Positions 562-27,434 of a stretch of 32,000 bases of DNA are shown here, one piece after another. A program made the position numbers and the translations under genes. Numbering within the stretch: position 1 is the first letter of the stretch; every line of letters starts with the position of its first letter. A model generated the notes under the pieces. The model made no database searches. It saw nothing but the letters and a program-made list of their open reading frames with translations, and was not told where the DNA came from. The stretch lies in assembly GCA_963697905.1 (NCBI GenBank), contig OY969101.1:2358347-2390346 (forward strand), in the 5' to 3' direction. This DNA is from an uncultured Actinomycetota bacterium (GTDB lineage Bacteria > Actinomycetota > Actinomycetes > Mycobacteriales > Jatrophihabitantaceae).

Positions 562-644
562 GCAGTTCTGCTCCTGGCCCGGCTACGGCCATTCTCGAAC
601 GCTTCAGGCGTATGCCCACGAGCGGCCAGCTGGTGTCGGTATTG

Positions 645-662
645 TCTTGCTCGTGAGCAAGA
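645..662. repeat. Inverted repeat tcttgctc-gt-gagcaaga (8-bp arms, 2-nt spacer) 16 nt upstream of the nuclease gene start; possible operator
   Basis: Read directly from the sequence; the arms are exact reverse complements. The function is inferred only. Confidence 0.4.
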
Positions 663-677
663 ACGGCCCGACGGACG

Positions 678-1604
678 ATGAGTGATCTCAAGCTTTTCCG
701 CATAGATGCTGGTGTCGCTACCGAGCTGACCGGCAGCTCCGTTGCGCTCGAAAAGTCGTTGCAGGACGTGATCGAGCGCAACATGGAGACCTTGTTCGGG
801 GTTCACCTGCTCGCATCCGAGTACTCAACCGGTCCGAAGCACGGCGGCCGGCTGGATTCCCTCGGCATCGATGAGGATGGCTCGCCGGTCATCTTCGAGT
901 ACAAGCGAGCCACCAATGAGAGCGTCATCAATCAGGGGCTGTTCTACCTCGACTGGCTGCTTGATCACCGATCCGAGTTCAAGCTGCTCGTCATGGAGAA
1001 ACTCGGCGTCGATCAGGCCGAGATGATCGACTGGCGCAATCCGCGTTTGATCTGCGTCGCGAACGGTTTCACCCGATACGACGAGTACGCCGTGCAGCAG
1101 ATCAATCGCAGCATCGAACTGGTCCGCTATCGCGATTTCGAGGGTCAACTCCTCGCTCTCGAACTGGTCACCGCCGCACGCACGCCCCAGTCCTCGGCTG
1201 CCAGCGCATCGACTACGACGACACCCGGCCCGAGAGTTCCGGCAGCGTACAAGACGGTCAGCGATTACCTCGAGGCCTCGCCCGCTGCTCTGCGCGACCT
1301 CTTCGGGGAGCTCGAAAGCTTCATCGAAGCCCTTGGCGATGACGTCACCAAGAAGACGCTGAAGCAGTACTTCGCCTACCGGAGACTGAAGAACTTCGCG
1401 TGCGTCGAGGTGCACCCACAAACCCAGAACCTGCTGATCTTTCTCAAGGTTGATCCCTCGACCATCGTCATCGAACCTGGCTTCAGCCGGGATGTCAGCA
1501 AGATCGGACACTTCGGTACCGGCGATCTCGAACTGCGGGTCGCCGACCATGCCCAACTCGAACGTGCGTTGCCCCTGGTCTCTGCCAGCTACGAACTCAG
1601 CTAG
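678..1604 (+). CDS. NucS/DUF91-like PD-(D/E)xK nuclease-domain protein with DUF5655-like C-terminal domain
   Basis: Intact 308-aa ORF. The N-terminal half has a nuclease-like core, LGIDEDGSPVIFEYKR (D...E-x-K). The C-terminal half (YFAYRRLKNFACVEVHPQ...LLIFLKVDP) resembles DUF5655 from memory. Composition is visibly less GC-rich than the neighbours. Confidence 0.6.
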   Translation: MSDLKLFRIDAGVATELTGSSVALEKSLQDVIERNMETLFGVHLLASEYSTGPKHGGRLDSLGIDEDGSPVIFEYKRATNESVINQGLFYLDWLLDHRSEFKLLVMEKLGVDQAEMIDWRNPRLICVANGFTRYDEYAVQQINRSIELVRYRDFEGQLLALELVTAARTPQSSAASASTTTTPGPRVPAAYKTVSDYLEASPAALRDLFGELESFIEALGDDVTKKTLKQYFAYRRLKNFACVEVHPQTQNLLIFLKVDPSTIVIEPGFSRDVSKIGHFGTGDLELRVADHAQLERALPLVSASYELS

Positions 1605-4876: not shown

Positions 4877-6678
4877 CCAAGATCCAGGACGCGCCGAGCA
4901 CGCCGCAGCATGCCGACAGCGATGTCGTGGAGATGGCGTGGGATCCGATCACCCGGATCGTCGGCAGCCTCGGCATCTACGCCAGCATCGACTTCAAGCA
5001 GAAGATCGTGCAGCGAGTGCCACAGCACCTCGTCGATCTTCCGCGGCTACAGCATCTTCATGAAGGGCAAGGATCCGCGCGACGCGCACTTCATCACCAG
5101 CCGGATCTGCGGGATCTGCGGTGACAACCACGCGACCTGCTCGGTCTATACGCAGAACATGGCCTACGGCGTCGCCCCGCCGCACCTCGGCGAGTGGATC
5201 ATCAACTGCGGCGAGGCCGCGGAGTACATGTTCGACCACAACATCTTCCAGGAGAACCTGGTCGGCGTGGACTACTGCGAGCGGATGGTCGGCGAGACCA
5301 ACCCGGGCGTGCTGGAGCTGGCCAACAACACCGAGGCACCGCACGCGGCCGAGCACGGGTACAAGACCATCGGCGACATCATGCGCTCGCTCAACCCGCT
5401 CGAGGGTGACTTCTACCGCGAAGCGCTGCAGGTCAGCCGCTATACCCGGGAGATGTTCTGCCTGATGGAGGGCCGGCACGTCCACCCGTCCACGCTGTAC
5501 CCGGGCGGCGTCGGCACGGTCGCGACGGTGCAGCTCTTCACCGACTACCTGACTCGGCTGATGCGCTACATCGAGTTCCTGAAGAAGGTCGTGCCGCTGC
5601 ACGACGACCTGTTCGACTTCTTCTACGAGGCGCTGCCCGGCTACGAGCACGTCGGCGAGCGGCGGATCCTGCTCGGCTGCTGGGGCAGCCTGAACGATCC
5701 CGGCGTACTGCGATTTCAAGTACGAGCACATGACCGACTGGGGCCGGCGGATGTTCGTCACGCCGGGCATCGTCGTCGACGGCAAGCTGGTCACCAACGA
5801 CCTCGTCGACATCAACCTCGGCATGCGGATCCTGCTCGGCCACTCCTTCTACGACGACTGGGAGGGCGCCGGCCACGAGGAGTTCGTCGAACGCGATCCG
5901 TTGGGCAACCCGGTCGACGTGCGGCATCCGTGGAACCAGCACACGCTGCCCAAGCCGGCCAAGCGCGACTTCGACAAGGCCTACAGCTGGACGATGTCGC
6001 CGCGCTGGTTCGACGGCAACGACCACCTCGCGCTCGACACCGGCGGCGGCCCGATCGCGCGGCTGTGGTCGACCGCGCTGTCCGGCCTGGTCGACATCGG
6101 CGGCTACGTGAAGGCGACCGGGCACAGCGTGCAGTTCAACCTGCCGAAGACCGCGCTCAAGCCGGCGGTGAGCTACGAGTGGAAGATCCCGCAGTGGAGC
6201 AACGCCATCGAGCGCAACCGGGCCCGCACCTACTTCCAGGTGTACGCCGCTGCCGCCGCGCTGCACTTCGTCGAGATGGGGCTGGCCGAGGTACGCGCCG
6301 GCCGCACCGACACCTGGACGCCGTTCACCGTGCCGGACGAGGCGATCGCGGTCGGCTTCACCGAGGCGGTGCGCGGCGTGCTCAGCCACCACATGGTGAT
6401 CCGCGACGGCAAGATCGCGAACTACCACCCGTACCCGCCGACACCGTGGAACGGCAGCGTGCGCGACAGCTACGGCACCCCGGGTCCGTACGAGGACGCG
6501 GTGCAGAACACGCCGATCTTCGAGGAGAATCCGCCCGACCGGTTCAAGGGCATCGACATCATGCGCGCGGTGCGCAGCTTCGACCCGTGCCTGCCGTGCG
6601 GGGTGCACATGTACACCGGCAACGGCTCGTCGGTGCCGCCAGGTGCACTCGCCGGCCATCGCCGTCAAGCCGTACTGA
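4873..6678 (+). pseudogene. hhyL: [NiFe]-hydrogenase large subunit, group 1h (HhyL); three 1-nt frame changes
   Basis: The reading path uses three listed ORFs. MTKIQD...IDFKQKIVQ is in the frame of ORF 4579..5124. ECHSTSSIFRGYS...RICGICGDNHA...GSLNDP is in the frame of ORF 4910..7315. AYCDFKYEHMTDWGRR...DPCLPCGVHMYTGNGSSV is in the frame of ORF 5730..6815. The last segment, RQVHSPAIAVKPY*, stops at TGA 6676-6678. Switches fall near 5014, 5700 and 6636. The L1 and L2 Ni-binding motifs are intact. Confidence 0.9.
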
Positions 6679-7241
6679 TGACCGGACGTACGACGAACTG
6701 CCCGGCCGCATCGAGGCGCTGCTGGACGACCTCGCCGCCACCGGCGACCAGCGGGTGGCCGAGGCCGCCGAGGAACTCGTCGCGGCGGTGGTCGGGCTCT
6801 ACGGCGAGGGGCTGACCCGGGTCGATCGACGCTGCTGGCGGCGGCGCCGAACGGGCCGGCGCTGCTGCGCGGCCTGGCCGAGGACGATCTGGTCGGCAAC
6901 CTGCTGCTGCTGCACGGGCTGCATCCGGACGACGCCGACGACCCGGATCCAGCAGGCACTGGACCGGGTGCGGCCCTACCTCGGCGCGCACGCCGGCGGC
7001 ATCGACTATCTCGGCATCGACGCCGACGGCGTCGCCCACCTGCGGCTGGAGGGCAGCTGCGACGGCTGCGCCGGATCGGCGGCGACCGTTCACACGGCCG
7101 TCGAGCGCGCCGTGCTGGAGGCCGCGCCCGAGGTGCGGGCGATCGAGGTCGAGGGCATGGTGGCACCGCCCGACGCCGTCGCCGTTGCTGCAGATCGAGC
7201 TGCGCTGCCCGGACGGCCTGGCCGAGGCGGTCGGCGGATGA
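6678..7241 (+). pseudogene. NifU C-terminal-domain-like Fe-S protein of the hydrogenase cluster (possibly HhyE-like); about 4 frame changes
   Basis: ATG at 6678 overlaps the hhyL stop (TGATG). Recognisable segments: YDELPGRIEALLDDLAATGDQRVAEAAEELVAAVVGLYGEGLTRV; LLAAAPNGPALLRGLAEDDLVGNLLLLHGLHPDD; RIQQALDRVRPYLGAHAGGIDYLGIDADGVAHLRLEGSCDGCAGSAATV...IEVEGMV; PLLQIELRCPDGLAEAVGG*. Switches fall near 6682, 6826, 6942 and 7175. Confidence 0.75.
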
Positions 7242-7903
7242 CGGCGCATCACCGGCGATCCGTTCGGCGTGCTGCGCCGGGTGATGCAGCCGCGCCAGCG
7301 ACCGCGGCCGGGTGAGGCGTGCGAGATGTGCGGCGAGCCGATCAGCCGAGCACAGCCACGTCGCGAGCCTGAGCGAGCGGCGGCTGCTGTGCACCTGCCG
7401 CGCCTGCTACCTGCTGTTCACCGCGCAGGGCGCCGGCGGCCGGCGGCTGCGGGCAGTGCCCGAGCGCTACCGAGAGGCCGACCGAGTTCGCGTTCAGCCA
7501 GGCGCAGTGGGACGACCTGGCCATCCCGGTCGGATCTGGTCTTCCTGTTCCAGCAGAGCGATGCCGAGGATCCAGACCGGCCGCGGTCAAGCTGGTCGCC
7601 TGCTACCCGAGCCCGGCCGGCGCGACCGAGTCGGAGCTCGATCTCGGTCCGCCTGGACCGAGATCGCGGCGGCCAACCCGGTGCTGGCCGACCTCGAGAC
7701 CGACGTCGAGGCGGTACTGCGTGCGCCGGCACGACGAGCGGCAGCTTCACCTGCCTGCGTGGTGCCGATCGACGCCTGTTACGAGCTGGTCGGAGTGGTC
7801 CGCCAGTCACTGGCGCGGCTTCCAGGGCGGCGACCGAGGTGTGGCAGCCGGATCGACGACTTCTTCGCCGACCTGCGGCGTCGAGCCGCCGGGAACGCGC
7901 TGA
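7238..7903 (+). pseudogene. Conserved hydrogenase-cluster protein with two CxxC pairs (DUF5947-like from memory); about 10 frame changes
   Basis: ATG at 7238 overlaps the previous stop (ATGA). Segments seen across frames: GDPFGVLRRVMQPRQRPRPGEACEMCGEPIS; EHSHVASLSERRLLCTCRACYLLFTAQGAGGRRLRAVPERY; TEFAFSQAQWDDLAIPV; LVFLFQQSDAE; AAVKLVACYPSPAGATESELDLG; WTEIAAANPVLADLETDVEAVL...VVPIDACYELVGVVRQ; HWRGFQGGD; EVWQ; RIDDFFADLRR. The TGA at 7901-7903 is followed directly by the next ATG. Confidence 0.7.
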
Positions 7904-16092: not shown

Positions 16093-16329
16093 CGCGCGCC
16101 CTTCCGGTCTGCCCGAGCCGCCAATCTGGAAGCTTCGGCTGCGCGGATCACCTGCGATGCTCGCCAGCTCGCATGATCAAGGCCACGCATGCAGGAATAT
16201 GGCCGATGGTCGAGCTGATTGCAACGGCGAGCTAGCCACAGGGGTCTGGTACGAATGAGCGGCGTGGCGCGCGAAGACCGGGAGTTCGGTAATGAGCCGC
16301 CGGCCATCTCGATCGATCCAGGAGGCATC

Positions 16330-17000
16330 GTGAAGCTTCTTCTCACCTCTGGCGGCGTCACGAACCCGAGCATCACCCGTGCCCTGACCGACCCGCTGGG
16401 CAAACCGACCGAAGAGGCCACCGCGCTGTGCATTCCCACAGCTCAGTGGGGCCACCCCATGTGCGGGCCGGCCTCGGCGCGCGGCTTCGTCAGCGGCCTG
16501 CCCCCGTGGGGCGGAATGACCTCGATGGAATGGAAATCACTGGGCCTGCTCGAACTGTCGGCGCTACCCAGCATCGGCGAGGAGCGCTGGGTGCCCTGGG
16601 TCCGAGAAGCCGATGTCCTGTTGGTGGACGGCGGAGATGCGACGTACCTGTGCCACTGGATGCACGAGTCCGGGCTGGCGCCCTCCTACCGTCACTGGCC
16701 GAGACGGTCTGGGTGGGAGTGAGCGCCGGCAGCATGGTGATGACTCCCCGGATCGGCGCCGCCTTCGTGGAATGGCCGGCGGCGAAAAGCGACAAGACTT
16801 TGGGAGTCGTCAACTTCTCGATCTTTCCCCACCTGGACGTCTTCCCGACGAACACGCTCGCCGAGGCGGAGCGCTGGGCCGCCGAGATCAACGGGCCGGC
16901 GTACGCCCTGGACGACCAAACGGCCATCAAGGTCGCCAGCGGCACGGTCGAGGTCGTCTCTGAGGGCCGCTGGAAGCAGTTCCACAACAGCCAGGACTGA
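16330..17000 (+). pseudogene. Peptidase E / S51 (type 1 glutamine-amidotransferase-like) protein, one frameshift
   Basis: GTG at 16330 follows ggagg (16321-16325). VKLLLTSGGVTN...LLVDGGDATYLCHWMHESGLA is in the frame of ORF 16219..16722. The sequence continues as LLPSLAETVWVGVSAGSMVMTP...FSIFPHLD... in the frame of ORF 16428..17000. The switch is near 16685. Confidence 0.7.
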
Positions 17001-17220: not shown

Positions 17221-18186
17221 GTGACCGCAGATGAACCTGACGAATTTGGTACTCGGGATACGAACGCGCCGGACGTTCACGGTGGCACCGCGATGCCGCA
17301 GGGTGCCCTCCCTAGAACCCTTCGAGAGTTTGCGTTCTTTCCGCTTCATCGACCAGAGTTCATTGCCGATGGGGGTGAACGTGGACGCGTCGCCTGGGGC
17401 GACGTGCTCCAATCGCTCGCCGACCTCGCTGAGCTAGAGGATTGGACCGGGCAATATGACCTCGCGCGACCGCTGCCGATCCTGGACAGCTACGTCCGTT
17501 ACACCTACCAACGTCTCGTCCTCGAAGACAAAGTCGCCGAGTCGATCGACGGCGAGACAGCGGCGCTAAACACCGGGCTCCTGACTGCCCACGCGGAGGA
17601 CATCTTCGGCCTGTTCACGAAGAACCGCCAGGGGGCTCAGCCCTGGGTATTCCTCAGGTGGGCAGCCGAATCGGACAGGATCCTTCTCAGATCATTCCCC
17701 GATCCGCCGCATATGGCGGAGTACGTGTCAACAGCTGCAGACCTCGTTTACGACTGGCGACGCCCACTGAAACTCGCGTATGAGCACATACTCGTCAACA
17801 ACATCGAACGCTTTCCCGCCGAACTAGCTGAGCATCCAATGCGTGCCCGACAAGCGCTCGACCTCGCAGTCGCTTGGACGCTCAAGAGGGCGCGACGCAA
17901 CTACAAGATCGTCGTGCCTCAGTGGTACCCGCGCCTCGGGGTAGTAAGCGGCGCACAGTTCCTAATGCCGCTTGACCTCTCAGGTCGCGGCCAGGCCGAC
18001 CTGGCGCTAGTGGTCTCAGCGGTTGGCGAGACTGCCTATCGCGGCCATACGGTGCTAACGCTCGACATGGCATACACCAATGCCCGACTGGTCGCGAGGC
18101 CGGACAGCGAGTGGCTTCGGCCTGTTGCGCCGTCGATCCCCTCAGTCGAGGAAGCATTCGCAGACGCCACCGCTCTCGAACATTGA
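17221..18186 (+). CDS. DUF3825-like protein (unknown function)
   Basis: Intact 321-aa ORF in the low-GC island. LNTGLLTAHAEDIFGLFTKNRQGAQPWVFLRW...YEHILVNNIERFP resembles the DUF3825 family from memory. The start is uncertain; alternative M at codon 25. Confidence 0.5.
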   Translation: MTADEPDEFGTRDTNAPDVHGGTAMPQGALPRTLREFAFFPLHRPEFIADGGERGRVAWGDVLQSLADLAELEDWTGQYDLARPLPILDSYVRYTYQRLVLEDKVAESIDGETAALNTGLLTAHAEDIFGLFTKNRQGAQPWVFLRWAAESDRILLRSFPDPPHMAEYVSTAADLVYDWRRPLKLAYEHILVNNIERFPAELAEHPMRARQALDLAVAWTLKRARRNYKIVVPQWYPRLGVVSGAQFLMPLDLSGRGQADLALVVSAVGETAYRGHTVLTLDMAYTNARLVARPDSEWLRPVAPSIPSVEEAFADATALEH

Positions 18187-18340: not shown

Positions 18341-21142
18341 CTATAGGTTGGCACTACTGTCCGGCGCTTGTGTCTGAGAGTCCGTGGGCGCCGTGACATG
18401 GTCGGAGTTCTTGTGGCTTCGGGGAACCGGCTGAACGTCTACGCCTGCTTCTTTTGCCCAACTCCGGAAGTAATTGCCGATGCTCCGCGTGGATTCGTCC
18501 GCCCATCTTGCACCGATGCTGTCGCGTATGGCTTTGCCGACCTCCCTTGGGGTGGCTGCCGGATCCTCAGCCAGGAGTTGCAGGCCGGCCTTGCCGCCAG
18601 GGGCTCGTGCGAGCAAGGAACGCAGGATCTCCGGCTGGATCTGCCCGTCTTGAATCAATCCCGGGGCGCTGACACGCACCCTGCCATCGGAGTCGACCGA
18701 AACGGCCCCTAGCGATGCGAGCGTGCGAATACCACGACGCTGCGGGTTGTTTCCGGGCTCCAGCATGATCGGCTCACCGGAAGCGAGATTGAGAAGCACC
18801 ACCCTGGCATGGCCGAGCGCCTCCTGAGGGACGCTTGGCCGCACCCTCATTGCCGAGCGTGACGAGAGGAGCAACTGACGAGCAGGCTGATCATCATTTG
18901 TGACCGAGAACATGCCCCCTCGGCGGGCAACTAGTCCCGCATATTCAAACCAGCCGAGGAACACTCGTGCGTACACCCTCCACGTATTCTCAGTAACAGC
19001 CACAGCAGGGAATGCCGTTGGCAGCGCCCGAGCATAATGCTCCACGTCAACTTGGCGATCTAGCTTTTCGTCCAGGTCTTTCAACGTTGTAAACGCGCGG
19101 TGCCGTCGGAGCGACCGGCCGATTTGAGTTCGGATTTCCATCTCGGGATCGTTGGCGCTAATGACCTCCGGGGTGAGACGAACCCGCAGCGGCTCGTAGA
19201 TAGCCACGCCTAGCAATCGAAGTTCGCGCGATAGGTTAAAGATCACCTTGTCGCTTGTTTGGAGCTCCTGAGCCAATTCTCCAACCGAAGCACTTCCGCC
19301 ACTCCGCATCACTGAGGGAAGTAGTCGGGCAACTGAATTTGGGGTCTGCCGGAGGATGTACGAATCCTCGACGGGTACGCGGCCGGTGGTCAGGTAGTCG
19401 CGGAAAGTATCCCAGTACGTGTCGATTCGATCGCCGATTTGCACGAGCAGCCTGCGGTCTACGAGCGACTGTACGGCCTGGTGGTTATACCGTTCTGTGA
19501 CCTCGCTGGCCGCGATCGGCGCATACCTCGCGACGTAGTTCAAGATCTCCCGCTGGCTTGGGGTCAACTCGGCAAGGTCGGCTTCGAAGAGCGACTGAAC
19601 GTTTAGCGCCTCCGCGAGGAGTTTCTCCTGCGTAACTCCCTTGCTCAACTCACTAATGACGTGATCAGACAACTTTTTCAGCAGCCATGGCAAACCCTGG
19701 CTGTACTCGCGAAGTCGGTCGCGCAGATCTCGGACGAGTTTTGCATTCGCTCGTCTTTCCAGACGGTCGATAAGGGTCGAGACTTCTTTGGAGCCGAAAG
19801 GCTCCATAACAAGGACCCTGGCATTGGCGCGGATCTCGTCTCGAAGTTGGTAGGGATGCCCCTCTGTCCACCCAACGAGATCGGTCTTCCAAGCGAAGCC
19901 CACGATAAGGGGGATCCGGAGCTCACGTATGCCCATGCTGAGGTCCCTGAAAGCTCGAGTGAGCTCCTCAGATCGAAAAACGTTTTCGAACTGGTCGAAG
20001 AAGATCAAAAGCCGCTTGGAAGGATCGCCCCAGTCGGCCTTCCCCAACGACTGAAGTGCGCTGGGGAGGCTTGCCCAGCTCGCAGCTGCGGGTTGACGGA
20101 GAATTCCTTTGGCCTCGGCCTCGATCGCTGCCTTCTGGAGAACCTCCACGACGTACCGAGGCGTTGATGCGGTGCGCGTGTCCATGACCAAGGCGTGTCC
20201 GGCCTGGCTTGTGATCATGTCGGCAAATTTCAGCGCAAGGCTGCTCTTACCCCAGCCCGACCTCGCATTGAGGACATACACCAGCTCACCTTGTGCGATG
20301 GCTGCCGCAAGCTTCGCCATCAGCTCGTTACGGCCAACAAAGAATTTCGGCGATGCGGGGAGTTGATATTGGAAGTCCTCGCTGCTTCCTTGCACTGTGG
20401 CCAGGATGTGAGACTCGATGGAGGGCGTGGGAGGGGGCGTTGGTAGCGCTTCTCGTCCATCAACGACACGAAGGCCTTGCGCGTAGGAATCAGACTCCAA
20501 CAGCTCGCGGGTGGGCGCCGGAACATTGCCCGATGCTGCCCAGCACAGGACCTGGATCGGGACCCGAGATTCTGGGTCAAGCTCCAGAACCGCGCTGTAT
20601 GTTCCGTCCGCAGTAATGACGACAGCTGGGTCGCTCGTCGTTCGACTCGTGAACGGGGGACTAGTTATTAAGCCCTCAGATTTCAGCCTTTCAACGATTG
20701 CGTCTGCTGGGAGGTATAAGAACTTGCCGTCCTGTCTGGTAATGGCGCGAGCTTTCTCCTCACCGTCGGGCGTGAGTCTTGGAAGAACCACCATCAGTCC
20801 CAAGGCATCTGCATCGTCGAAGCGCTCCACTGTGAGCTTTCCGTAGAAGCTCGTTAGCTCCGTTGCTTTTACAGCGCGGCCGTAGACCTTGCACTCAGCG
20901 ATCGCGTGGGCTGCAGAGAGCCTATGAGTTGTGGTGACGTCGAGTTCGATTCCTTCAGATGTCACATTGATCTTTGAGGCCGATGGAGGGTCGTAGCCAT
21001 ATATCCGAAGAAGGTTGCCGACGAAGACCTCGAACAGATGCCCTCGAGCGTTGGCGGCCGCCTGCGGCGTCGCACCGTCGGCGAGCACGATGACGCGCAC
21101 CTGCTCCACGGTGTTTTGTTCCACGATACAAAAGCCTGCCAT
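18341..21142 (-). CDS. Mrr-type restriction-endonuclease domain fused to a STAND (NB-ARC-like) P-loop NTPase, winged helix and ~330-aa C-terminal region; candidate defence protein
   Basis: Intact 933-aa ORF in low-GC DNA. Nuclease core at aa 34-86: GHLFEVFVGNLL...EGIELDV...AIAECKVY. Pre-P-loop FVGRNEL. Walker A ARSGWGKSS (aa 293-301; nt 20240-20266). Walker B LLIFFDQFE (aa 378-386). STAND-like motifs VLVMEPFGSKEV and SQGLPWLLKKL. wHTH-like LTPSQREILNYVARYAPIAASEV. Confidence 0.7.
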   Translation of the reverse strand: MAGFCIVEQNTVEQVRVIVLADGATPQAAANARGHLFEVFVGNLLRIYGYDPPSASKINVTSEGIELDVTTTHRLSAAHAIAECKVYGRAVKATELTSFYGKLTVERFDDADALGLMVVLPRLTPDGEEKARAITRQDGKFLYLPADAIVERLKSEGLITSPPFTSRTTSDPAVVITADGTYSAVLELDPESRVPIQVLCWAASGNVPAPTRELLESDSYAQGLRVVDGREALPTPPPTPSIESHILATVQGSSEDFQYQLPASPKFFVGRNELMAKLAAAIAQGELVYVLNARSGWGKSSLALKFADMITSQAGHALVMDTRTASTPRYVVEVLQKAAIEAEAKGILRQPAAASWASLPSALQSLGKADWGDPSKRLLIFFDQFENVFRSEELTRAFRDLSMGIRELRIPLIVGFAWKTDLVGWTEGHPYQLRDEIRANARVLVMEPFGSKEVSTLIDRLERRANAKLVRDLRDRLREYSQGLPWLLKKLSDHVISELSKGVTQEKLLAEALNVQSLFEADLAELTPSQREILNYVARYAPIAASEVTERYNHQAVQSLVDRRLLVQIGDRIDTYWDTFRDYLTTGRVPVEDSYILRQTPNSVARLLPSVMRSGGSASVGELAQELQTSDKVIFNLSRELRLLGVAIYEPLRVRLTPEVISANDPEMEIRTQIGRSLRRHRAFTTLKDLDEKLDRQVDVEHYARALPTAFPAVAVTENTWRVYARVFLGWFEYAGLVARRGGMFSVTNDDQPARQLLLSSRSAMRVRPSVPQEALGHARVVLLNLASGEPIMLEPGNNPQRRGIRTLASLGAVSVDSDGRVRVSAPGLIQDGQIQPEILRSLLARAPGGKAGLQLLAEDPAATPREVGKAIRDSIGARWADESTRSIGNYFRSWAKEAGVDVQPVPRSHKNSDHVTAPTDSQTQAPDSSANL

Positions 21143-21386
21143 AGAGGTATGGATTCGAAAAATCTTGCTCTACTGCGCCGTGGCCTTGAGAGGACCAGCA
21201 AGACAGGCCGATGTGGCGGTGACACCCATCCGTAGGGCAGACCCTTCCGTCTGACGGCAGGAGCCCAGTGAAGTGCATCGCATATCGCCAGGAAGCAGCG
21301 AGGCTCTGATGCACAGAGTCGGCGGTCGCGTGGTCGTGATTGCGGAGCGCCTGCTCCGGGCTAACCTGGTTGCTTCATCCACTTGC

Positions 21387-21404
21387 TGGAGCGTCGACGC
21401 TCCA
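21387..21404. repeat. Perfect 18-bp palindrome TGGAGCGTCGACGCTCCA 40 nt upstream of the recombinase start
   Basis: Verified base by base as its own reverse complement. A role as operator or recombination core is inferred only. Confidence 0.4.
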
Positions 21405-21443
21405 AGGGCCGCCGGGCTCTGGCCTGAAGTCCCGGAGGTCGCC

Positions 21444-22364
21444 ATGACCACCAGTATCCCGTCGACCGACATCGCCGTGTCGGTCGAGCCGCTGTTCACC
21501 TCGAACGAGAGGATCGCGTTGGCCGGCTTCCTGGCCGGCTACAGCGGCCTGACCCGCGACGCCTACGCACTGGATCTCCGGATGTACACCGCCTGGTGTC
21601 AGCAGCACGACCTGCACCTGTTCCAGGCCCGCCGCGCAGACATCGAGTGCTTCGGCCGCGAGATGGAGGCCCGCGGCCGGGCCCGGGCCACCATCGCCCG
21701 CCGGCTGTGCACCATCGCCGGCTTCTACCGCTACGCCGTCGAGGAGGAGCTGCTCGAACACTCCCCTGCCGTGCACGTGCGCAGGCCCCGGCTGGACCAC
21801 GAGTCCCACGCGGTCGGATTGGACCGCAACGAGGTCGGCTCGCTACTGGTCGCCGCCGGCCTCGGCGCACCGAACGAGCACGCCCTGATCTCGCTGCTGG
21901 CGATTAACGGCCTGCGGATCTCCGAAGCGCTCGGCGCCGACATCGACAAGCTGGGACTCGAACGCGGCCACCGCACCCTGACCGTGCTGCGCAAGGGCGG
22001 CAAGATCGTCACCATCCCGCTGGCACCGCGCACCGCCCGAGCGATCGACCTGGCCATCGGCGAACGACTCGACGGCCCAATCTTCCTCAGGCTCGACGGG
22101 CAACGGATGGACCGCCACTGCGCCAGCCGCATCGTGCGCCGGGTCGCCCGCCGCGCTGGCATCGGCAAGCCCATCGGCCCACACACCCTGCGCCACGCCT
22201 TCATCACCGCAGCCCTCGACGCCGGCGTCGCGCTGCGAGACGTGCAAGAAGCCGCCTCCCACGCCGACCCACGAACCACCATGCGCTACGACCGCGCCCG
22301 CGTCTCCCTCGACCGACACGCCACCTACATCGTCGCCGCCTACCTCGCCGGCGCCGCCCGCTGA
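21444..22364 (+). CDS. Tyrosine-type site-specific recombinase/integrase (XerC/D-like)
   Basis: Start at MTTSIPST (ATG 21444) within ORF 21273..22364. SAM-like N-domain (YALDLRMYTAWC, TIARRLCTIAGFYRY). Catalytic residues are in context: NGLRISEAL (R), HTLRHAFIT (H-x-x-R), ASHADPRTTMRYD (H...Y). GC is high, unlike the flanking island. Confidence 0.9.
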   Translation: MTTSIPSTDIAVSVEPLFTSNERIALAGFLAGYSGLTRDAYALDLRMYTAWCQQHDLHLFQARRADIECFGREMEARGRARATIARRLCTIAGFYRYAVEEELLEHSPAVHVRRPRLDHESHAVGLDRNEVGSLLVAAGLGAPNEHALISLLAINGLRISEALGADIDKLGLERGHRTLTVLRKGGKIVTIPLAPRTARAIDLAIGERLDGPIFLRLDGQRMDRHCASRIVRRVARRAGIGKPIGPHTLRHAFITAALDAGVALRDVQEAASHADPRTTMRYDRARVSLDRHATYIVAAYLAGAAR

Positions 22365-22499: not shown

Positions 22500-22769
22500 C
22501 TAGTTGGTGTTGAGGGGGACGATACGGTCTTCGAAGGTGATCGCGAAGGCGTTGAGTGCCGGCTTCCACCGCATCGCCCAGCGGGCCCGGCCGCGGCCGG
22601 TCGGGTCCAGTGATCGGGTGACCAGGTAGAGGCACTTCAGGGCGGCCTGCTCGGTCGGGAAGTGACCGCGTGCGCGGACCGCGCGGCGGTAGCGGGCGTT
22701 GAGCGATTCGATCGCGTTGGTCGAGCAGATGATGCGCCGGATTGAGGTTAGGGGTGTCATCGCCTTCAA
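22500..22769 (-). pseudogene. IS256-family transposase, C-terminal fragment only
   Basis: IRRIICSTNAIESLNARYRRAVRARGHFPTEQAALKCLYLVTRSLDPTGRGRARWAMRWKPALNAFAITF is the conserved IS256 Tnp C terminus. The 5' three quarters of the gene are absent. Sequence composition changes abruptly at about 22765. Confidence 0.85.
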
Positions 22770-22862
22770 TCACTAGTACGCCAGCCAGGGATCGCCCGAC
22801 TGCTTTACTTCTCTTCTGGGCTCTGCACGTGTCGTAACAAGTCTTTCTTAACGGAGTGCTAG

Positions 22863-25667
22863 ATGATCACTTTCGATCCAGAGTCAGCCGATGGTCAGTG
22901 GCTCCATCAACGCCTCGTCGAAGTGGTGGCCGATAAAGTCGTTGCTGCATCCGTGGCGAAAGAAGCCGACCCGGTGCGACGTTTCCTGCTGATTGGAGAC
23001 GAGTGGTCCGGTCGCACACGAGTCCTTCGACTCGTCACGCAGTCGCTCCAAGATCACGACGGGTTTAACGACGTTTCGGTGCTAATCCTCGATCCGTTTA
23101 CCGACTTGCAAGTCTCACCTAGCGGCGGTCCTCCTGGCCGAACCGCCAAGCAGGTCGGAGACCTCCTACTCTTCCTATCGACGATTTTCGCACCGGTTCC
23201 TCACCTCGACATCATGAGCAAAGTGCTCGCCGTGTCGGGCGCTGGAGCCGTGGTAGCGGGCGACAACAGCGAGCGCCGAATGCTAGAGGCACGCCCGCGC
23301 GCGCCTGGTACGGTCAACGAGTTTGTCAACCAAGTGCGTGGGATTATCCGAATGCGACCCACCGTCGTGATCTGCGTGTTAGACGTGGAACGCGTTGGTT
23401 CCCCGGCGGACGCGCGAGAGCTGATAATCAAACTGCAGCTTCTTGAGGCGGTACACGACTGCCGCGTAATCACCGTCCTTGCCTGCAGCATGGAAACTGC
23501 ATCGGAAGTGCAGACGTCTGGTGTCCAACGCTGGACACCGATCGTGATACCCGAGGTTACTGCCGAGCAAGCTGCGCGCTGGCTCGGTCAACCACTCGAC
23601 TTGGCAGCCTCGGTCTGCGACTTGGCCAAAGGCCGGGCAGCTCTGATCGTCGCGTTCTCGCGTGTGCTCGCCACAGCACAATCGCTCCCGTCGGCCGAGC
23701 AGGCAGCCGCGTTCCTCAAGTCCTGGGCCCGCGACTACGTTATCGACACTGTCCTTGACTCTGCACGCGAAGAGGGATTCGACAAGCAGTCTGAGCAACG
23801 TGTGCTGGATTGTCTGGATGCTGCCGCTCTGCTTGCGCTGCAGGGCGATCAGTGCAGACCATCTGTACTCGACGCCGCAGGCCTTGGCGCGGCACGGCGC
23901 GACCTCCAGCGAACCGGTCGCAACGCACTGCCCGAGCGATGGTTGATCGAGCGCATCCTGACCACAGGCTGCAAGGAAGAACAATGGCGCCTACCGCGAC
24001 TGATTGCGACGTTGCTGCGCGAGAACCTGTTCACTCGCATAACGCAGGCACGCGCCGACATGGCATCGGCCGATGCCTCACCCGACATCAAGCCGCCAAT
24101 CATTCAGCGCACAGAACATTATCTCAACGCGCTGTTCACGTCCTGCTGGAACAACTTGGCGTTGATCAGTCCGCACGCAGTGTTCGCGGCAAGTGCCGTA
24201 GGGCGGATGGACTTTGTCGAGTACCACCGACGGGCCTGCGCTCAAGCGGCGCTAGATCGACGCGTCGACGACGCCCACTTGCTCGCCCGCCAGTTGCGTG
24301 GTCACGGATTGAAGCGCTGGGATGACGCGCACCTTATGCAGACGGCGCAAGATGTCTTCAATACGCTCAGCCTAACGCCACAGGAGTACCAGCCCCGGAA
24401 GATTCGTCGCGATCTGCTGGCCGTAGCCACAGCGGCACGAAAGTTACGACAGGATCACCGACCAGACTTGGACACACCGCTCAAAGACCTTAGCAGCGCT
24501 GCGCAGCACCGGATGCGGAGTGGAGTCCGCCCCGAAGCAACGCGACTATTGGCCGATGTGCTGCTCGTGCTTGAATCGCGTGAACAGCCGCTGGACGCCT
24601 TCGTGCCAAGCCGGGAGCTCATCGACCTCGCGCGCGACCTGCCCGACGTTCGGAGGTTGGTACTTTTATGTGTCGTGGGGGCGACCTATAATGCTGCCAA
24701 TTTCGATATCGCTCTTCATTGCATCTTGCACCTGACCAGTGATTTGGCGTTCGGCCCGGGGCCATGCTCCATTCACGGTGGCGCGGCCAGCCGATTGGAG
24801 ATGACTGCATCCTTACTCACCGTCGCGTGCACGGGGTGGAGCGGTGATCGGCAGGCCGCACGCACAGCCAGCGGCAAGTGTGTACGGGCAGCAATGCGCG
24901 CTGCTATGGCAGACCCCGACCCGGCGCGCGGCACCGGCCTAGCTATATCCATCATGCGAACACCTATCAGCTACGACCGAGACTGTGAAGAGTTTTCGAT
25001 CTCGGTCCTCGTACGAATCGCCCGCCGAGCATCGTCAAGCGACCGTGCCCGACTTTCCGCGCTCGCCTACTTGATCTCCCACATGAGATCCCGGGATGAC
25101 TACGTACAACTCGCTACGGCGGCTGTTGCTGATCTGCTGCTACGCGCTGAACGCGCCGTGCCGGAAGATGAATGCTACTACTGGGCCTTCGCTGCCGACT
25201 ATCTTGAACGCGGGGTTAGTCAGCAACACGCCGATGTCTATCGATACATGGCTGCCGCACTAGCGGTCGGCCATGCCAATAGCGCTGCTCCCGCTGAACT
25301 CGCCAACCTGGACTGTGACATCGGCACCCCGAGCACGTGGCCCGCGGCAGGCGCCATCCTCACGGGCGACGGCTTCAATATCCCCATCGACGCCTCGCAC
25401 CGCGACTACGCGTTTTCTCTCGGGAGAGGGACACGTGCATCGTCGGCGGCGCTTGTCGATGAGTGGCTAGACCGCTTGATCGACCTCCTGCCTTTGCCTT
25501 GGTTCGATAACCTCGACCTACTTCGGCTGGAAACCGAAATTCTGGTGCGAGAGGCCCTCGCAGATGCAGGCAGGATAGTAAATTGCGACCCATTTGACAT
25601 CGCAGAACGCTTCGCGCTGCTCGACGCATTGCCGGACTTATTGGGTTCCGCCCCTAGGATCCCGTAG
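22863..25667 (+). CDS. Large STAND-like P-loop NTPase with variant Walker A (GxxxxGRT) and a long alpha-helical C-terminal region; function unknown
   Basis: Intact 934-aa ORF in the lowest-GC DNA of the window. FLLIGDEWSGRTRVL (aa 41-55; P-loop nt 22995-23018). Walker-B-like TVVICVLDVE (aa 167-176). STAND-like IVIPEVTAEQAARWL. No recognisable effector domain. The family was not recognised. Confidence 0.55.
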   Translation: MITFDPESADGQWLHQRLVEVVADKVVAASVAKEADPVRRFLLIGDEWSGRTRVLRLVTQSLQDHDGFNDVSVLILDPFTDLQVSPSGGPPGRTAKQVGDLLLFLSTIFAPVPHLDIMSKVLAVSGAGAVVAGDNSERRMLEARPRAPGTVNEFVNQVRGIIRMRPTVVICVLDVERVGSPADARELIIKLQLLEAVHDCRVITVLACSMETASEVQTSGVQRWTPIVIPEVTAEQAARWLGQPLDLAASVCDLAKGRAALIVAFSRVLATAQSLPSAEQAAAFLKSWARDYVIDTVLDSAREEGFDKQSEQRVLDCLDAAALLALQGDQCRPSVLDAAGLGAARRDLQRTGRNALPERWLIERILTTGCKEEQWRLPRLIATLLRENLFTRITQARADMASADASPDIKPPIIQRTEHYLNALFTSCWNNLALISPHAVFAASAVGRMDFVEYHRRACAQAALDRRVDDAHLLARQLRGHGLKRWDDAHLMQTAQDVFNTLSLTPQEYQPRKIRRDLLAVATAARKLRQDHRPDLDTPLKDLSSAAQHRMRSGVRPEATRLLADVLLVLESREQPLDAFVPSRELIDLARDLPDVRRLVLLCVVGATYNAANFDIALHCILHLTSDLAFGPGPCSIHGGAASRLEMTASLLTVACTGWSGDRQAARTASGKCVRAAMRAAMADPDPARGTGLAISIMRTPISYDRDCEEFSISVLVRIARRASSSDRARLSALAYLISHMRSRDDYVQLATAAVADLLLRAERAVPEDECYYWAFAADYLERGVSQQHADVYRYMAAALAVGHANSAAPAELANLDCDIGTPSTWPAAGAILTGDGFNIPIDASHRDYAFSLGRGTRASSAALVDEWLDRLIDLLPLPWFDNLDLLRLETEILVREALADAGRIVNCDPFDIAERFALLDALPDLLGSAPRIP

Positions 25668-26062
25668 CGCGCTCACGATAACAGCCGATTCTGGCAGCTG
25701 CGCACCTCGGATAGCACCCACTCGCTCTTGTCCTGGCTCACCCCTCAGGCATGCAGCGGTCGCCTGCAATTGCCCATAACGCGTGAGCGCAACTCACAGA
25801 TATCGCTCGGCGAGGTGCACAGAGTCGGCAACTTGTTTGACTCGACCTCGGGAGCCTGGGAGCAGCATCCTCAGGCGTTGGACCTGGTCGGGTTCGCTCG
25901 CGAATCGGCTGCCGTCGTCCTGGCGATGTTCTGGCTCACGAACGGCCCGCGGCTCGATCGGGTCCACCCGGTGAGGTTGTGGCTCAAGAGAGGTCTGCGC
26001 TGCCGGTAGTTGCATTGCCCTCCTCGCCAAGTCCGGTCCGGTGAATTTGAGGAGGCGAGGGC

Positions 26063-27100
26063 GTGGCTGACGATGTGATGATCAGCGTGGATCCGCACAA
26101 GGCGAGCAACACCGCGGCGGTCATGGACCCGGTCACGAAGATCGTGATCGACAGCCGGCGGTTCACGAACACGGCTGCCGGCTACCGGCAGCTGCGTGAG
26201 TTCAGTGGCCGCTGGCAGCAACGCCGGTGGGCGGTCGAGGGCTGCCACGGCGCCGGCCGATCGCTGGCCCAACGCCTGGTCGCCGACGGCGAGCTGGTGC
26301 TCGACGTCCCGGCCAAGCTCGCTGCTCGGGTGCGGGTCTACTCCCAAGGACACGGCCGCAAGACCGACGTCAACGACGCGGTCTCGATCGGACTCGCCGC
26401 GCTGAACAGCGGCAGCGTGGTCCGCGGTCCGCACCGACGACACCCTCGTTAGCCTGCGGCTCTTGTCCGACCGGCGTGACGAGCTCGCTGCCCTGCGGAC
26501 CCAGGCCGTCTGCCGCTTGCACCGTCTGCTGGCCGAACTCACGCCGGGCGGCACCCACCGCGGCCTCAAGGCCAGCCGAGCCCAGCAGCTACTGGACAAG
26601 CTGCGACCCGCGGACCCGGTCGCGCAGGTCCGGCTCCAGCTCGCCGCCCAGCATCTGGAAGACATCTGCGCACTGGACGCGAAGATGAAGGCCGTCCGCG
26701 CTCAGATCGAGGAGCTGGTCAAGACGACCGGCTCGCACCTGGCCGACCTCTACGGAGTCGGCCCGGTGATCGCCGGCCGCATCCTGGCCGAGGTCGAGAC
26801 CATCGACCGGTTCCCCTCAAAGGACCACTTCGCCTCCTACAACGGCATCGCGCCCATCGATGCCTCCTCCGGCGACCACGTCCGACACCGGCTGTCCCGA
26901 GCCGGGAACCGGCGGCTGAACCACGCGCTCCACATGATGGCGGTGACCCAAATCCGCTATCCCGAAAGCGAGGGCCGCCGCTATTACGAACGCAAGCGAT
27001 TGGAGGGCAAGACCCCGAAAGAAGCGCTGCGCTGCCTCAAGCGTCGACTCTCCGACGCCGTCTACCGGCAGCTGCTCGCCGACCGGCCGAGCACAATCGA
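26063..27100 (+). mobile_element. IS110-family transposase gene, disrupted by a 7-bp tandem duplication and probably 3'-truncated
   Basis: The N-terminal part MADDVMISVDPHKASNTAAVMD...GRKTDVNDAVSIGLAAL is listed ORF 26063..26452. It continues as DDTLVSLRLLSDRRDELAALRTQ...LYGVGPVIAGRILAEVETIDRFPSKDHFASYNGIAPIDASSGDHVRHRLSRAGNRRLNHALH...LKRRLSDAVYRQLLAD in listed ORF 26463..27302. ggtccgc is duplicated at 26419-26425 and 26426-26432. The tail after about 27085 is low-complexity read-through. IS ends are not defined. Confidence 0.85.
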
Positions 27101-27103
27101 TGC

Positions 27104-27283
27104 GTGCGGATCACCTACGACCGCGCCGCCAACGCGGCCTACATCTACCTCACCGACGCCGAACTCGAAGCCGGACACACCACCACCCTCGCGGCGCTCC
27201 CTCCCGGGATCGACGGCTTCGTCGCGCTCGACTGGCAAGACGACCGCCTCGTCGGTATCGAAGTCCACATCACGAACGACTAG
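27104..27283 (+). CDS. DUF2283-like small protein (59 aa)
   Basis: My own translation from GTG 27104: (M)RITYDRAANAAYIYLTDAELEAGHTTTLAALPPGIDGFVALDWQDDRLVGIEVHITND*, with TAG at 27281-27283. This matches the MRITYD...AYIYL...LD.D..GRLVGIEV pattern I associate with DUF2283. It is one codon below the track cutoff and is masked by the IS110 read-through ORF. Confidence 0.6.
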   Translation: MRITYDRAANAAYIYLTDAELEAGHTTTLAALPPGIDGFVALDWQDDRLVGIEVHITND

Positions 27284-27434
27284 ATCAGCGACCAACGCTT
27301 GACAGAGAGGAGCCGATCTGTGCGGCCTGTGGATGCCGAGAATGTGGTGCGCGGGGCGCGGTTGGGTGAGTACGCGTGTCCTTAGCCAGGCCGACCAGCG
27401 TTGCGCAACCGAGCGAGCAACGAGGACCGGAAAT

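Follow-up and report, generated by a model that had tools for sequence, protein, structure and literature searches.

A 934-residue orphan protein with an arginine-bearing, P-loop-like N-terminal region, encoded in an IS-rich island of an uncultured actinobacterium

The window analysed here is the whole stretch of 32,000 nucleotides, taken from an uncultured Actinomycetota bacterium of the Jatrophihabitantaceae. It carries two giant genes among mobile-element genes. One encodes a 933-aa protein with an Mrr-like nuclease and an nSTAND1 NTPase; the other encodes the 934-aa orphan protein that is our subject. The genes and features are the following:

18341..21142, minus strand: gene of the neighbouring 933-aa protein, Mrr-like nuclease plus nSTAND1 NTPase (Pfam), unrelated to the 934-aa protein
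21273..22364, plus strand: tyrosine integrase gene, between the giant genes (Pfam Phage_integrase, 8.2e-23)
22500..22769, minus strand: C-terminal fragment of an IS256-family (Mutator-type) transposase, directly upstream of the 934-aa gene (Pfam Transposase_mut)
22853..22856, plus strand: Shine-Dalgarno-like GGAG, 6 nt before the ATG (direct sequence reading)
22863..25667, plus strand: gene of the 934-aa orphan protein, stop codon within the end coordinate (ORF list, translation, coding-type GC)
22863..23672, plus strand: residues 1-270, putative diverged P-loop NTPase-like alpha/beta domain and first lid helices (homology to P0003, AF2, Foldseek)
22884..22904, plus strand: SADGQWL, residues 8-14, invariant in both family members (alignment A1)
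22995..23018, plus strand: Walker-A-like loop G45-D-E-W-S-G-R51-T52, Arg for the canonical Lys (translation, alignment)
23151..23267, plus strand: conserved hydrophobic insert between Walker A and Walker B, residues ~97-135 (pattern L..LS...APV)
23361..23390, plus strand: Walker-B-like strand TVVICVLDVE, residues 167-176 (predicted strand 167-174; hydrophobic positions conserved)
23547..23585, plus strand: IPEVTAEQAARWL, residues 229-241, strand 5 and first lid helix (alignment A1, AF2)
23673..25664, plus strand: residues 271-934, predicted all-helical region (low-confidence models)
26063..27302, plus strand: IS110-family transposase in two frames, 26063..26452 and 26463..27302 (DEDD_Tnp_IS110 and Transposase_20 in separate ORFs)

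The coordinates and the length of 934 aa given in a preliminary description of this DNA agree with the ORF list and the translation. The ORF starts with ATG and has a coding-type composition (GC1/GC2/GC3 of 0.68/0.48/0.66). The chance of 934 stop-free codons at the same composition, calculated from base frequencies, is around 1e-13. The N-terminus of the protein is collinear with that of its relative P0003 (see below), which backs the start. The ORF is a real, intact, horizontally acquired gene. The foreign composition that had been ascribed to both giant genes is indeed common to them, as GC3 is 0.66 in each versus 0.81-0.93 in host genes. Their codon usages are closest to each other (L1 distance of 0.31 versus ~0.6 to host genes), and the foreign codon usage extends to a DUF3825 gene. 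The integrase gene is host-like in codon usage (GC3 of 0.87). Line 24661-24720 has a GC content of 43.3%, in line with the 43% claimed, but the ORF does not have the lowest GC of the window: it stands at 60.9% versus 58.8% in the neighbour, and line 19621 ties with the 43% line.

The integrase gene and the IS256 fragment between the giant genes, and the frame-split IS110 after the ORF, were missed in the preliminary description. The IS256 fragment matches positions 327-373 of the 379 in the Transposase_mut profile (6.2e-14), and is ~85% identical in DNA to IS256 copies on actinobacterial plasmids. The joined frame of the IS110 transposase holds stop codons, and this element is probably a pseudogene. 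A peptidase S51 gene nearby is also split. The ORF at 25871..26665 on the minus strand, downstream of the 934-aa gene, runs antisense to the IS110 transposase and was discarded as a shadow ORF. We found no convincing att-like direct repeats or tRNA bounding the island, no PADLOC match within it, and, with Rfam, no RNA family anywhere in the window. Scanning for promoters and terminators gave no informative result.

An exhaustive HMMER/phmmer search of 1.84 billion representatives returned one true relative, P0003 (680 aa), which is 28% identical to the 934-aa protein over residues 4-270. BLASTP between the two gives 28% identity over 275 columns, with an E-value of 2e-16 (2.1e-8 database-wide). 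The other phmmer match, P0002, is an Ala/Gly-rich repeat protein and was rejected as spurious. In the word-indexed set of 5.8e9 sequences, the 934-aa protein and P0003, used as queries, each returned only themselves. The search with a two-member profile gave 0 matches, and its sensitivity is doubtful because its own members went unreturned. Locus searches with the profile and P0003 revealed no relatives in genome, metagenome, or viral contigs, and neither did tblastn against plasmids and phages. A look-up of contigs by the exact protein returned no record. Hence, the 934-aa protein has only one distant relative among ~15 billion public proteins, and on sequence comparison they form an orphan family, a tiny one of which these two are the known members. 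The preliminary description had been unable to place the protein in any family, and neither could we: neither the whole protein nor its split halves, the latter even at E <= 10, have a match in Pfam, NCBIfam, PADLOC, or PHROGs, and the sequence search of the PDB gave nothing below an E-value of 1.6. As had also been reported, no effector domain is detectable in the Pfam, PADLOC, and NCBIfam scans.

Residues 1-270 are the only part of the protein clearly homologous to P0003. The most conserved 14-residue window of alignment A1 (71% identity) includes SADGQWL. The second most conserved block is the P-loop-like region, where residues 42-55 are 57% identical, compared with a mean of 28%. The motifs lie where they had been placed: FLLIGDEWSGRTRVL spans residues 41-55, with R51 at the position of the Walker-A Lys, VVICVLDVE spans residues 168-176, and IPEVTAEQAARWL spans residues 229-241. 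The loop reads GDEWSGRT in the 934-aa protein and GQPGSGRD in P0003, with Arg at the Lys position in both and, in P0003, Asp where Walker A normally has Ser or Thr. The canonical STAND Walker A, GxxxxGK[ST], is absent from both. Since P0003 shares the Arg and only one block is more conserved than that of the P-loop, the Arg would be ancestral and constrained rather than a recent decay; this argues for long-term constraint on the loop, although two sequences are too few for proof. The Walker-B-like strand aligns with VVLLVSGTD in P0003, and its acid is not conserved in register, because P0003 has Gly opposite D174 and Asp opposite E176.

We take IPEVTAEQAARWL to resemble the STAND/ORC motif 'LxPLsxxEaxxL'. 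P-x-V-T-A and W are conserved between this region and P0003. In the AF2 model of the N-terminal part a strand is predicted at residues 224-228 and a helix at 234-241; the helices at 234-327 that follow strand 5 include the conserved PxVTA...W and GRxxLI blocks (alignment and low-confidence AF2 model). The order of elements in this model, b1-loop-a1-b2-...-b3-a3-b4-a4-b5, is that of an AAA+/STAND core plus lid, but the model is of low confidence (pLDDT of 56.7, pTM of 0.48). The preliminary description had proposed a Foldseek search with a predicted structure. The resulting list is dominated by AAA+ ATPases (~45 of the top 50 PDB matches, with TnsC, Cdc6/Orc1, ORC4, BrxC, RdrA, RFC, Cdc48, and Hsp104 among the names), in keeping with the AAA+-like order, but none is significant: the best E-value is 2.9e-3 (TnsC) and the TM-scores are at most 0.30. 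The search of BFVD with the same model had no significant match either (all E >= 1.5e-3), nor did that with the full-length single-sequence AlphaFold model (pLDDT of 41). As both models are of low confidence, the AAA+ likeness could be an artefact seeded by the P-loop-like motif.

Weak sequence matches point in the same direction. Five of the 6 sub-threshold Pfam matches of P0003 belong to the P-loop clan, with AAA_22 and AAA_16 covering Walker A to Walker B. Its other weak matches are also P-loop proteins (PADLOC PDC-M54A, midasin AAA domains, and the NCBIfam MeaB and CMP-kinase models). The weak PDB matches of profile A1 all place the loop on the GxxGxGK[ST] of P-loop proteins, and R51 falls on the Lys of GKT/GKS in these and in the nSTAND1 profile alignments. 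This evidence, weak but concordant, suggests that residues 1 to ~270 resemble a strongly diverged ATP-binding domain of the P-loop, AAA+/STAND type. Of the STAND-like NTPase of the preliminary description, the P-loop-like signature with Arg for Lys is upheld, with the Arg kept in P0003, but the membership in STAND is not: none of the STAND or AAA models gave a significant match, and hhalign against a profile of 43 nSTAND1 NTPase sequences aligned 33 columns around the P-loop with a probability of 1.8%. Neither an Arg finger nor sensor residues could be assigned in the 934-aa protein, and no winged helix or sensor-His motif of the NOD module could be identified in its low-confidence models.

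Residues 271-934 contain no domain detectable with Pfam at E <= 10, and show faint collinear similarity to P0003 around residues 437-556. This part had been described as some 650 residues of helical, repeat-like sequence. Its helical nature is predicted and is also given by DSSP, on low-confidence models only. The repeats did not materialise: self-comparison with BLASTP or phmmer revealed none, and Pfam at E <= 10 revealed no repeat family (TPR, WD40, LRR, HEAT). This region may nevertheless contain structural repeats without sequence similarity.

The layout of the protein resembles several known systems in part. It resembles the bacterial antiviral STAND NTPases (Avs/AVAST, bNACHT, and nSTAND clades) in being a large single polypeptide with a putative N-proximal P-loop-type domain, predicted lid-like helices, and a long, fast-evolving C-terminus predicted to be helical, and in its location in a foreign, mobile-element-rich island, here beside an nSTAND1 protein. 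Unlike them, it has Arg for the Walker-A Lys, no detectable effector and no TPR, WD40, or LRR-type repeats, and no significant match to STAND models in Pfam, PADLOC, or NCBIfam; to the nSTAND1 profile, only the 33 columns align. Like the initiator-clade and related AAA+ proteins (Cdc6/Orc1, ORC4, TnsC; also BrxC, RdrA), it is predicted to carry a helical insertion after strand 2, ahead of the Walker-B strand, and to have a lid helix behind strand 5. However, the matches of the low-confidence N-terminal model to these proteins are not significant (E-values of 3e-3 to 1e-2, TM-scores of 0.23-0.30), and the protein differs from them by the lack of the canonical Lys and of an assignable Arg finger or sensor 2, and by an unrelated C-terminal architecture. 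Degenerate Walker motifs are also found in KpAvs8, a functional antiviral STAND in which they suggest that there is no ATPase activity (PMC13581612).

The reading that we favour, to which we give a little less than an even chance, is that of a nucleotide-binding switch protein that stands alone, is impaired in hydrolysis, and travels as cargo of an IS-rich variable island. Residues 1-14, with SADGQWL, would form a short conserved N-terminal cap, followed by a helix at residues ~15-31. Residues ~39-232 would make up a strongly diverged P-loop NTPase core whose strands follow the AAA+/STAND-type order, with Arg51 substituting for the Walker-A Lys and with the conserved hydrophobic insert, presumably helical, between Walker A and Walker B. 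Lid-like helices would follow at residues ~234-330, and the last ~600 residues would be non-repetitive, fast-diverging alpha-helical sequence. Engineered Lys-to-Arg mutants of the Walker A of RecA and Rad51 keep ATP binding and lose most of the hydrolysis. The Arg-bearing loop might likewise still bind the nucleotide phosphate with little or no hydrolysis, which would make the protein a nucleotide-bound conformational or oligomerisation switch, not a motor. The variable helical C-terminal region may bind the ligand, and the output may come from assembly or sequestration and not from an enzymatic effector domain. The protein would act independently of the neighbouring nuclease-STAND. As to its setting, a role in conflict or defence would be the likeliest given the neighbourhood, an IS-rich island of foreign composition beside a nuclease-STAND gene.

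The best surviving alternative, though an unlikely one, is that the protein is not an NTPase at all, its GxxxxGR[ST/D] loop and strand pattern being a chance or convergent likeness in a different, possibly new, fold with a different function. The protein has no significant match in sequence or structure, its models are of low confidence, and the relaxed motif [AG]x4G[KR][ST] occurs in 10% of shuffles of its sequence. Neither member has the canonical Lys, P0003 lacks the Ser/Thr, and the acid of Walker B does not align in register. However, only 0.2% of shuffles contain this motif once a hydrophobic strand is required before it, the motif falls in the second most conserved block, the weak matches of P0003 are nearly all in the P-loop clan, and the predicted b-a-b order agrees with the AAA+-dominated Foldseek lists. 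We also consider it rather improbable that the gene is a non-functional relic, i.e., a once-canonical ATPase gene on foreign DNA that lost catalysis and is drifting, still intact because recently acquired. It has decayed genes around it (the IS256 fragment, the split IS110 transposase, and the split peptidase S51), its Walker motifs are non-canonical, and the family is extremely rare. Against this, the ORF of 934 codons is fully intact, with its Shine-Dalgarno-like site, and the Arg, which recurs in a relative that is 28% identical, and the above-average conservation of the loop both argue for long-term constraint, not recent decay.

At a still lower probability, the two proteins may represent a hitherto unseen and extremely rare family of NLR-like proteins that have no effector and are silent in catalysis, in which the ancestral Arg P-loop locks the nucleotide-bound state. 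Their function in immunity or another conflict would then require no enzymatic domain. It could consist of stoichiometric capture of invader proteins by the hypervariable helices, or of an assembly driven by the SADGQWL cap and the conserved hydrophobic hairpin in the NTPase core.

It is very unlikely that the protein belongs to the KAP or YobI/Tmn kind of membrane-associated P-loop NTPases, with the insert as a membrane hairpin and the helical C-terminus as sensor arms. Its layout fits the description of Tmn, in which transmembrane helices lie inside the P-loop domain and the C-terminal region behind it is variable and alpha-helical (PMC13001434), and the context is also defence-island-like. 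The most hydrophobic segment of both family members falls in the insert (Kyte-Doolittle value of 2.12 in P0003), and a polytopic membrane protein is encoded next to P0003. However, the 19-residue Kyte-Doolittle maximum of the insert is 1.54 in the 934-aa protein, within the range of soluble proteins of the window (0.8-1.63) and far under that of true transmembrane segments (2.4-2.6). The two hydrophobic halves of the insert are just ~15-17 residues long, with charged residues interrupting them. The Tmn, YobI, and KAP models of PADLOC and Pfam have no match at E <= 10 to the 934-aa protein or P0003, and Tmn requires its Walker-A G66/K67 (PMC13001434), whereas both proteins have Arg in place of this Lys. 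The hydropathy controls lend no support to the transmembrane, KAP, or Tmn reading of the insert.

The preliminary description had suggested that the protein might be a sensor, regulatory partner, or decoy for the neighbouring protein, whose 933 aa and distance (its start lies 1,720 nt from the ORF) it gave correctly. In plants, paired NLRs lie head-to-head, and the P-loop of the sensor member can be degenerate. The two giant genes are similarly divergent, 1.7 kb apart, with near-identical codon usage, and the neighbour has a canonical GKS P-loop and a nuclease, as opposed to the non-canonical loop of the effector-less 934-aa protein. Yet the integrase gene and the IS256 fragment separate the genes, and the proteins lack mutual homology. 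We also rejected their paralogy, as hhalign aligned only the 33 columns mentioned above, and the near-equal size is a coincidence. Among 46 loci with homologues of the neighbour, inspected over up to 10 kb (28 of them with at least 6 kb on both sides), none encodes a relative of the 934-aa protein or P0003. There is no conserved partner gene across these loci, where no flanking family is common to more than 10. On the 3.2 kb contig of P0003, the gene upstream encodes a polytopic membrane protein, and there is no nSTAND1 gene. The neighbouring Mrr-nSTAND1 gene is widespread and stands alone, and, judging from these loci, the 934-aa gene is not its conserved partner. The preliminary description had itself named a lack of conserved co-occurrence as refuting its proposal, and this lack is what the loci show. 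Hence, the idea of a two-gene system akin to paired NLRs is largely refuted, and we hold it to be highly improbable; the option of an independent system, also raised in the preliminary description, still stands.

A large ATP-dependent regulator of the MalT/LuxR/AfsR type (AAA_16 plus HTH) or a TnsC/IstB-like AAA+ transposition helper is barely credible: P0003 has a faint AAA_16 match (E-value of 0.56), TnsC tops the Foldseek matches, a MalT structure is in the non-significant list of the full-length model, and IS elements adjoin the gene, but the 934-aa protein has no HTH or other DNA-binding domain and no AAA_16 match in Pfam, it far exceeds the matched TnsC chain (461 residues) and the much smaller IstB, and the flanking IS256 and IS110 are truncated or split and belong to single-transposase families that are not known to use an AAA+ helper.

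Resting on two sequences only, and lacking a structural match of significance, the finding offers little to build on, and its present value is modest. It does remove a tempting but unsupported annotation as 'paired STAND'. If the favoured assignment is true, the 934-aa protein would be a natural hydrolysis-impaired P-loop switch protein whose non-canonical Arg loop has persisted through deep divergence, in a very rare lineage with only two members among the ~15 billion public proteins. It would add to the evidence, such as that from KpAvs8, that some NLR-like prokaryotic proteins function with no turnover of ATP. It would also allow the classic K-to-R substitution in Walker A, known from engineered proteins, to be examined in a natural case.

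The 934-residue protein is encoded by an open reading frame whose ATG start has a GGAG 6 nt on its 5' side. The GC1/GC2/GC3 of the frame (0.68/0.48/0.66) are of the coding type, with a GC3 far under that of the host genes (0.81-0.93) in a window of around 68% GC overall. Calculated from base frequencies, the chance of 934 stop-free codons at this composition is about 1e-13. Hence, this is a real gene. Its translation contains the motifs quoted in the preliminary description: FLLIGDEWSGRTRVL at residues 41-55, with R51, VVICVLDVE at residues 168-176, and IPEVTAEQAARWL at residues 229-241. The same description gave the gene the lowest GC of the window, which is partly right: its line 24661 has 43% GC, but line 19621 ties with it, and the neighbouring gene is lower when taken whole (58.8% against 60.9%). 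A terminator-like hairpin with a T-run lies within the frame (24643-24660, plus strand) and precedes the 60-nt line with the highest AT content in the gene (to 24720), which has a TATAAT. The stretch 24643-24720 encodes residues ~595-620, which rank second in hydrophobicity among the segments of the protein, and is probably a local composition effect.

The gene lies in a variable region between two blocks of host chromosome. The left half of the window carries an ABC transporter and a gene cluster for a NiFe-hydrogenase and its maturation, and the right side carries purine-catabolism genes (amidohydrolase, uricase, OHCU decarboxylase, allantoicase). The hydrogenase large-subunit gene seems to be frame-split between ORFs 4910-7315 and 5730-6815, both on the plus strand. 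The first (801 aa) carries positions 1-81 of the NiFeSe_Hases profile N-terminally and a NifU domain C-terminally, and the second (GC3 0.94) has positions 262-508 in another frame. The split suggests a frameshift, a pseudogene, or a sequencing error. The genes of the variable region are the following.

16219-17000 (+), peptidase S51 gene, split into 16219..16722 and 16428..17000, two ORFs that overlap in different frames
17221..18186 (+), gene of a DUF3825 protein (Pfam E 7e-66)
18341..21142 (-), gene of the neighbouring 933-aa protein, with Mrr-like nuclease and nSTAND1 NTPase domains
21273..22364, tyrosine-integrase gene, with host-like GC3 (0.87)
22500..22769 (-), truncated IS256 (Mutator-family) transposase, C-terminal fragment
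22863..25667 (+), gene of the 934-residue protein
26063..27302 (+), IS110-family transposase in two frames (DEDD_Tnp_IS110 26063..26452, Transposase_20 26463..27302)

The split peptidase gene stands at the left edge of the region of foreign composition and may mark the boundary of the island. The DNA of the IS256 fragment is ~85% identical to IS256 copies on plasmids of Pseudonocardia and Mycolicibacterium, and the low-GC block with the gene under study starts at the truncation point of this fragment (~22775). Since the IS110 transposase is split over two frames, it is probably inactivated. The upstream non-coding end of this element matched no RNA family of Rfam, and an ORF on its opposite strand (25871..26665, minus) was rejected as a shadow ORF of the transposase. 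We found neither a tRNA nor convincing att-like repeats bounding the island, and the window matched no family of Rfam. In codon usage, the genes of the 934-residue, Mrr-nSTAND1, and DUF3825 proteins cluster together (L1 distances of 0.31-0.42, against ~0.6 to host genes), and the integrase and IS genes fall outside this cluster. The foreign composition previously said to be shared by the two large genes is thus real, and would allow for their origin in the same donor. The 1.7 kb separating them is occupied by the mobile-element genes.

Relatives of the protein are extremely rare. It has no match in Pfam, NCBIfam, PADLOC, or PHROGs, even when searched as two halves at E <= 10, nor among the sequences of the PDB, and in a word-indexed set of 5.8 billion proteins it matched only itself. 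When 1.84 billion representatives were searched exhaustively with phmmer, three matches appeared: the protein itself, a spurious hit to a repetitive Ala/Gly-rich protein (P0002), and one homologue (P0003), a 680-aa protein on a 3.15-kb Logan contig. The latter is 28% identical to residues 4 to 270 (E-value of 2e-16 in pairwise BLASTP, 2.1e-8 database-wide) and is itself a singleton in the word-indexed set. No further relatives emerged from genome, metagenome, and viral contigs scanned by profile or by protein, or from plasmids and phages searched by tblastn. The 5.8-billion set, when searched with the profile, likewise gave nothing, which is weak evidence since that search missed the family's own members too. 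As all further searches were empty, the family, as delimited by sequence similarity, has two known members among about 15 billion proteins.

The alignment of the two members shows which parts are constrained. Their N-termini align collinearly. This supports the start as annotated, and it indicates that the protein lacks no effector domain at this end. Three blocks stand out: SADGQWL(+) at residues 8-21, the most conserved (71% identity, for a mean of 28%), the P-loop at residues 42-55 (57%), and residues 99-112, part of a hydrophobic insert. In P0003, LLLVGQPGSGRDTVL aligns with FLLIGDEWSGRTRVL; both proteins have Arg at the position of the Walker-A lysine, and P0003 has Asp at the canonical Ser/Thr position. 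The hydrophobic residues of the Walker-B-like strand are kept in both, with the acid out of register (D174 faces Gly and E176 faces Asp). Past residue 270, faint collinear similarity is found only at ~437-556; the C-terminal parts differ in length and are nearly unrecognisable as related.

Is the N-terminus a P-loop NTPase? Five of the six sub-threshold Pfam matches of P0003 belong to the P-loop clan (AAA_17, MeaB, AAA_22 over residues 40-204, AAA_5, and AAA_16 over residues 24-178), and its weak matches in PADLOC, PDB, and NCBIfam are P-loop proteins, e.g. midasin AAA domains, MeaB, and CMP kinase. The weak PDB matches of a two-sequence profile (midasin, adenylate kinase, EccC3, Rho) all align the loop with GxxGxGK[ST], as does hhalign against an nSTAND1 profile of 43 sequences built from related loci. 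A Walker-A-like motif after a hydrophobic strand occurs in 0.2% of shuffles of the protein. The AlphaFold2 model of the N-terminal 330 residues, made from the two-sequence alignment, is modest (pLDDT 56.7, pTM 0.48). It predicts a strand (40-46), the loop, a helix (51-63), a strand (71-76), a helical insert, a strand (167-174), a helix (181-197), a strand (200-208), a helix (210-218), a strand (224-228), and lid-like helices, which in this model is the order of AAA+/STAND proteins. In a Foldseek search of the PDB, ~45 of its best 50 matches are AAA+ ATPases (TnsC, Cdc6/Orc1, ORC4, BrxC, RdrA, RFC, Cdc48, Hsp104, FtsH, proteasomal Rpt subunits), with none reaching E 1e-3 and every TM-score <= 0.30. 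These tests are individually non-significant, and that the protein is no NTPase at all is the heaviest of the rival explanations, even if unlikely. Yet, they are concordant, and we therefore accept, with moderate confidence, that the N-terminus is most likely a P-loop NTPase-like domain, diverged and with the AAA+/STAND topology. The proposed membership in STAND proteins, or in any other named family, is not demonstrated. The motifs PxVTAxxxxxW and GRxxLI resemble STAND/ORC lid motifs, which we take to be a lead.

An altered Walker A could also mean that the gene is a non-functional relic. This second explanation in weight is rather improbable: the Arg appears from the alignment to be ancestral to the pair and lies in a constrained block, which speaks against recent decay. 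Engineered RecA and Rad51 mutants with a Walker-A Lys-to-Arg change keep nucleotide binding and lose most hydrolysis. In KpAvs8, a functional antiviral STAND protein, degenerate Walker motifs are thought to abolish the ATPase activity (PMC13581612). By analogy, we propose that the 934-residue protein would be a nucleotide-binding, hydrolysis-impaired switch. A ligand would bind to its variable, helical C-terminal region, and the output would be assembly or sequestration rather than catalysis. This C-terminal region, predicted to be helical throughout in low-confidence models, had been called repeat-like; we found in it neither a repeat family nor internal sequence repeats, and it may be a structural solenoid.

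Between Walker A and Walker B, residues ~97-135 form the most hydrophobic segment of both proteins (Kyte-Doolittle maximum of 1.54, and of 2.12 in P0003). This insert recalls the YobI/Tmn and KAP NTPases, of which Tmn is described with two transmembrane helices within its P-loop domain and with a C-terminus that is helical and variable (PMC13001434). A membrane-associated protein of the KAP/Tmn kind, the third explanation in weight, is nevertheless improbable: the value of 1.54 falls among those of the window's soluble proteins (0.8-1.63) and far under those of true transmembrane segments (2.4-2.6), and the models of Tmn, YobI, and KAP give no match. The Orc/Cdc6/TnsC-type AAA+ proteins carry a helical insert, the initiator-specific motif. 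An alternative reading of the model is that the insert is of this type, which fits the top Foldseek matches, in a region where the model is unreliable (pLDDT below 50).

The preliminary description suggested that the protein could be a partner of its neighbour. The two are not homologous by sequence comparison: hhalign gives a probability of 0.07% between the sequences and of 1.8% against the neighbour's family profile, where the alignment covers the P-loop only. The neighbour has 46 homologues in a set of species-representative genomes, spanning Actinomycetota (57% identity in Frigoribacterium), Pseudomonadota, Desulfobacterales, Dehalococcoidia, Acidobacteriota, and one Heimdallarchaeota MAG. 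Within flanks of up to 10 kb (>= 6 kb on both sides in 28 loci), none of the 46 loci has a relative of either family member, the DUF3825 protein, or the window's integrase, and no flanking gene family is common to more than 10 loci. Hence, the Mrr-nSTAND1 gene is a stand-alone module. It matches no PADLOC 2.0 model, and looks like a widely transferred one-gene system. A partnership, fourth in weight, is thus very improbable: conserved co-occurrence, whose absence the preliminary description had named as refuting the idea, was not found. On the contig of P0003 (L001), the divergent upstream gene (4-795, minus strand) encodes a polytopic membrane protein of 263 aa, which shows four peaks of hydropathy and has no Pfam or PADLOC match and no counterpart in the window. 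Lightest of all, a role as regulator or transposition helper hardly deserves credence.

The hydrolysis-impaired switch would then be a single-gene cargo amid IS remnants in a variable island, a context which suggests that it may act in defence or conflict. The paired system, the most eye-catching part of the initial view, is unsupported. The rarity of the family is curious and the structural assignment weak. The description that fits the protein best is a new and very rare form of the large P-loop switch proteins of mobile or defence islands, one in which the P-loop has a conserved, non-canonical Arg and neither an effector nor a repeat sensor can be recognised.
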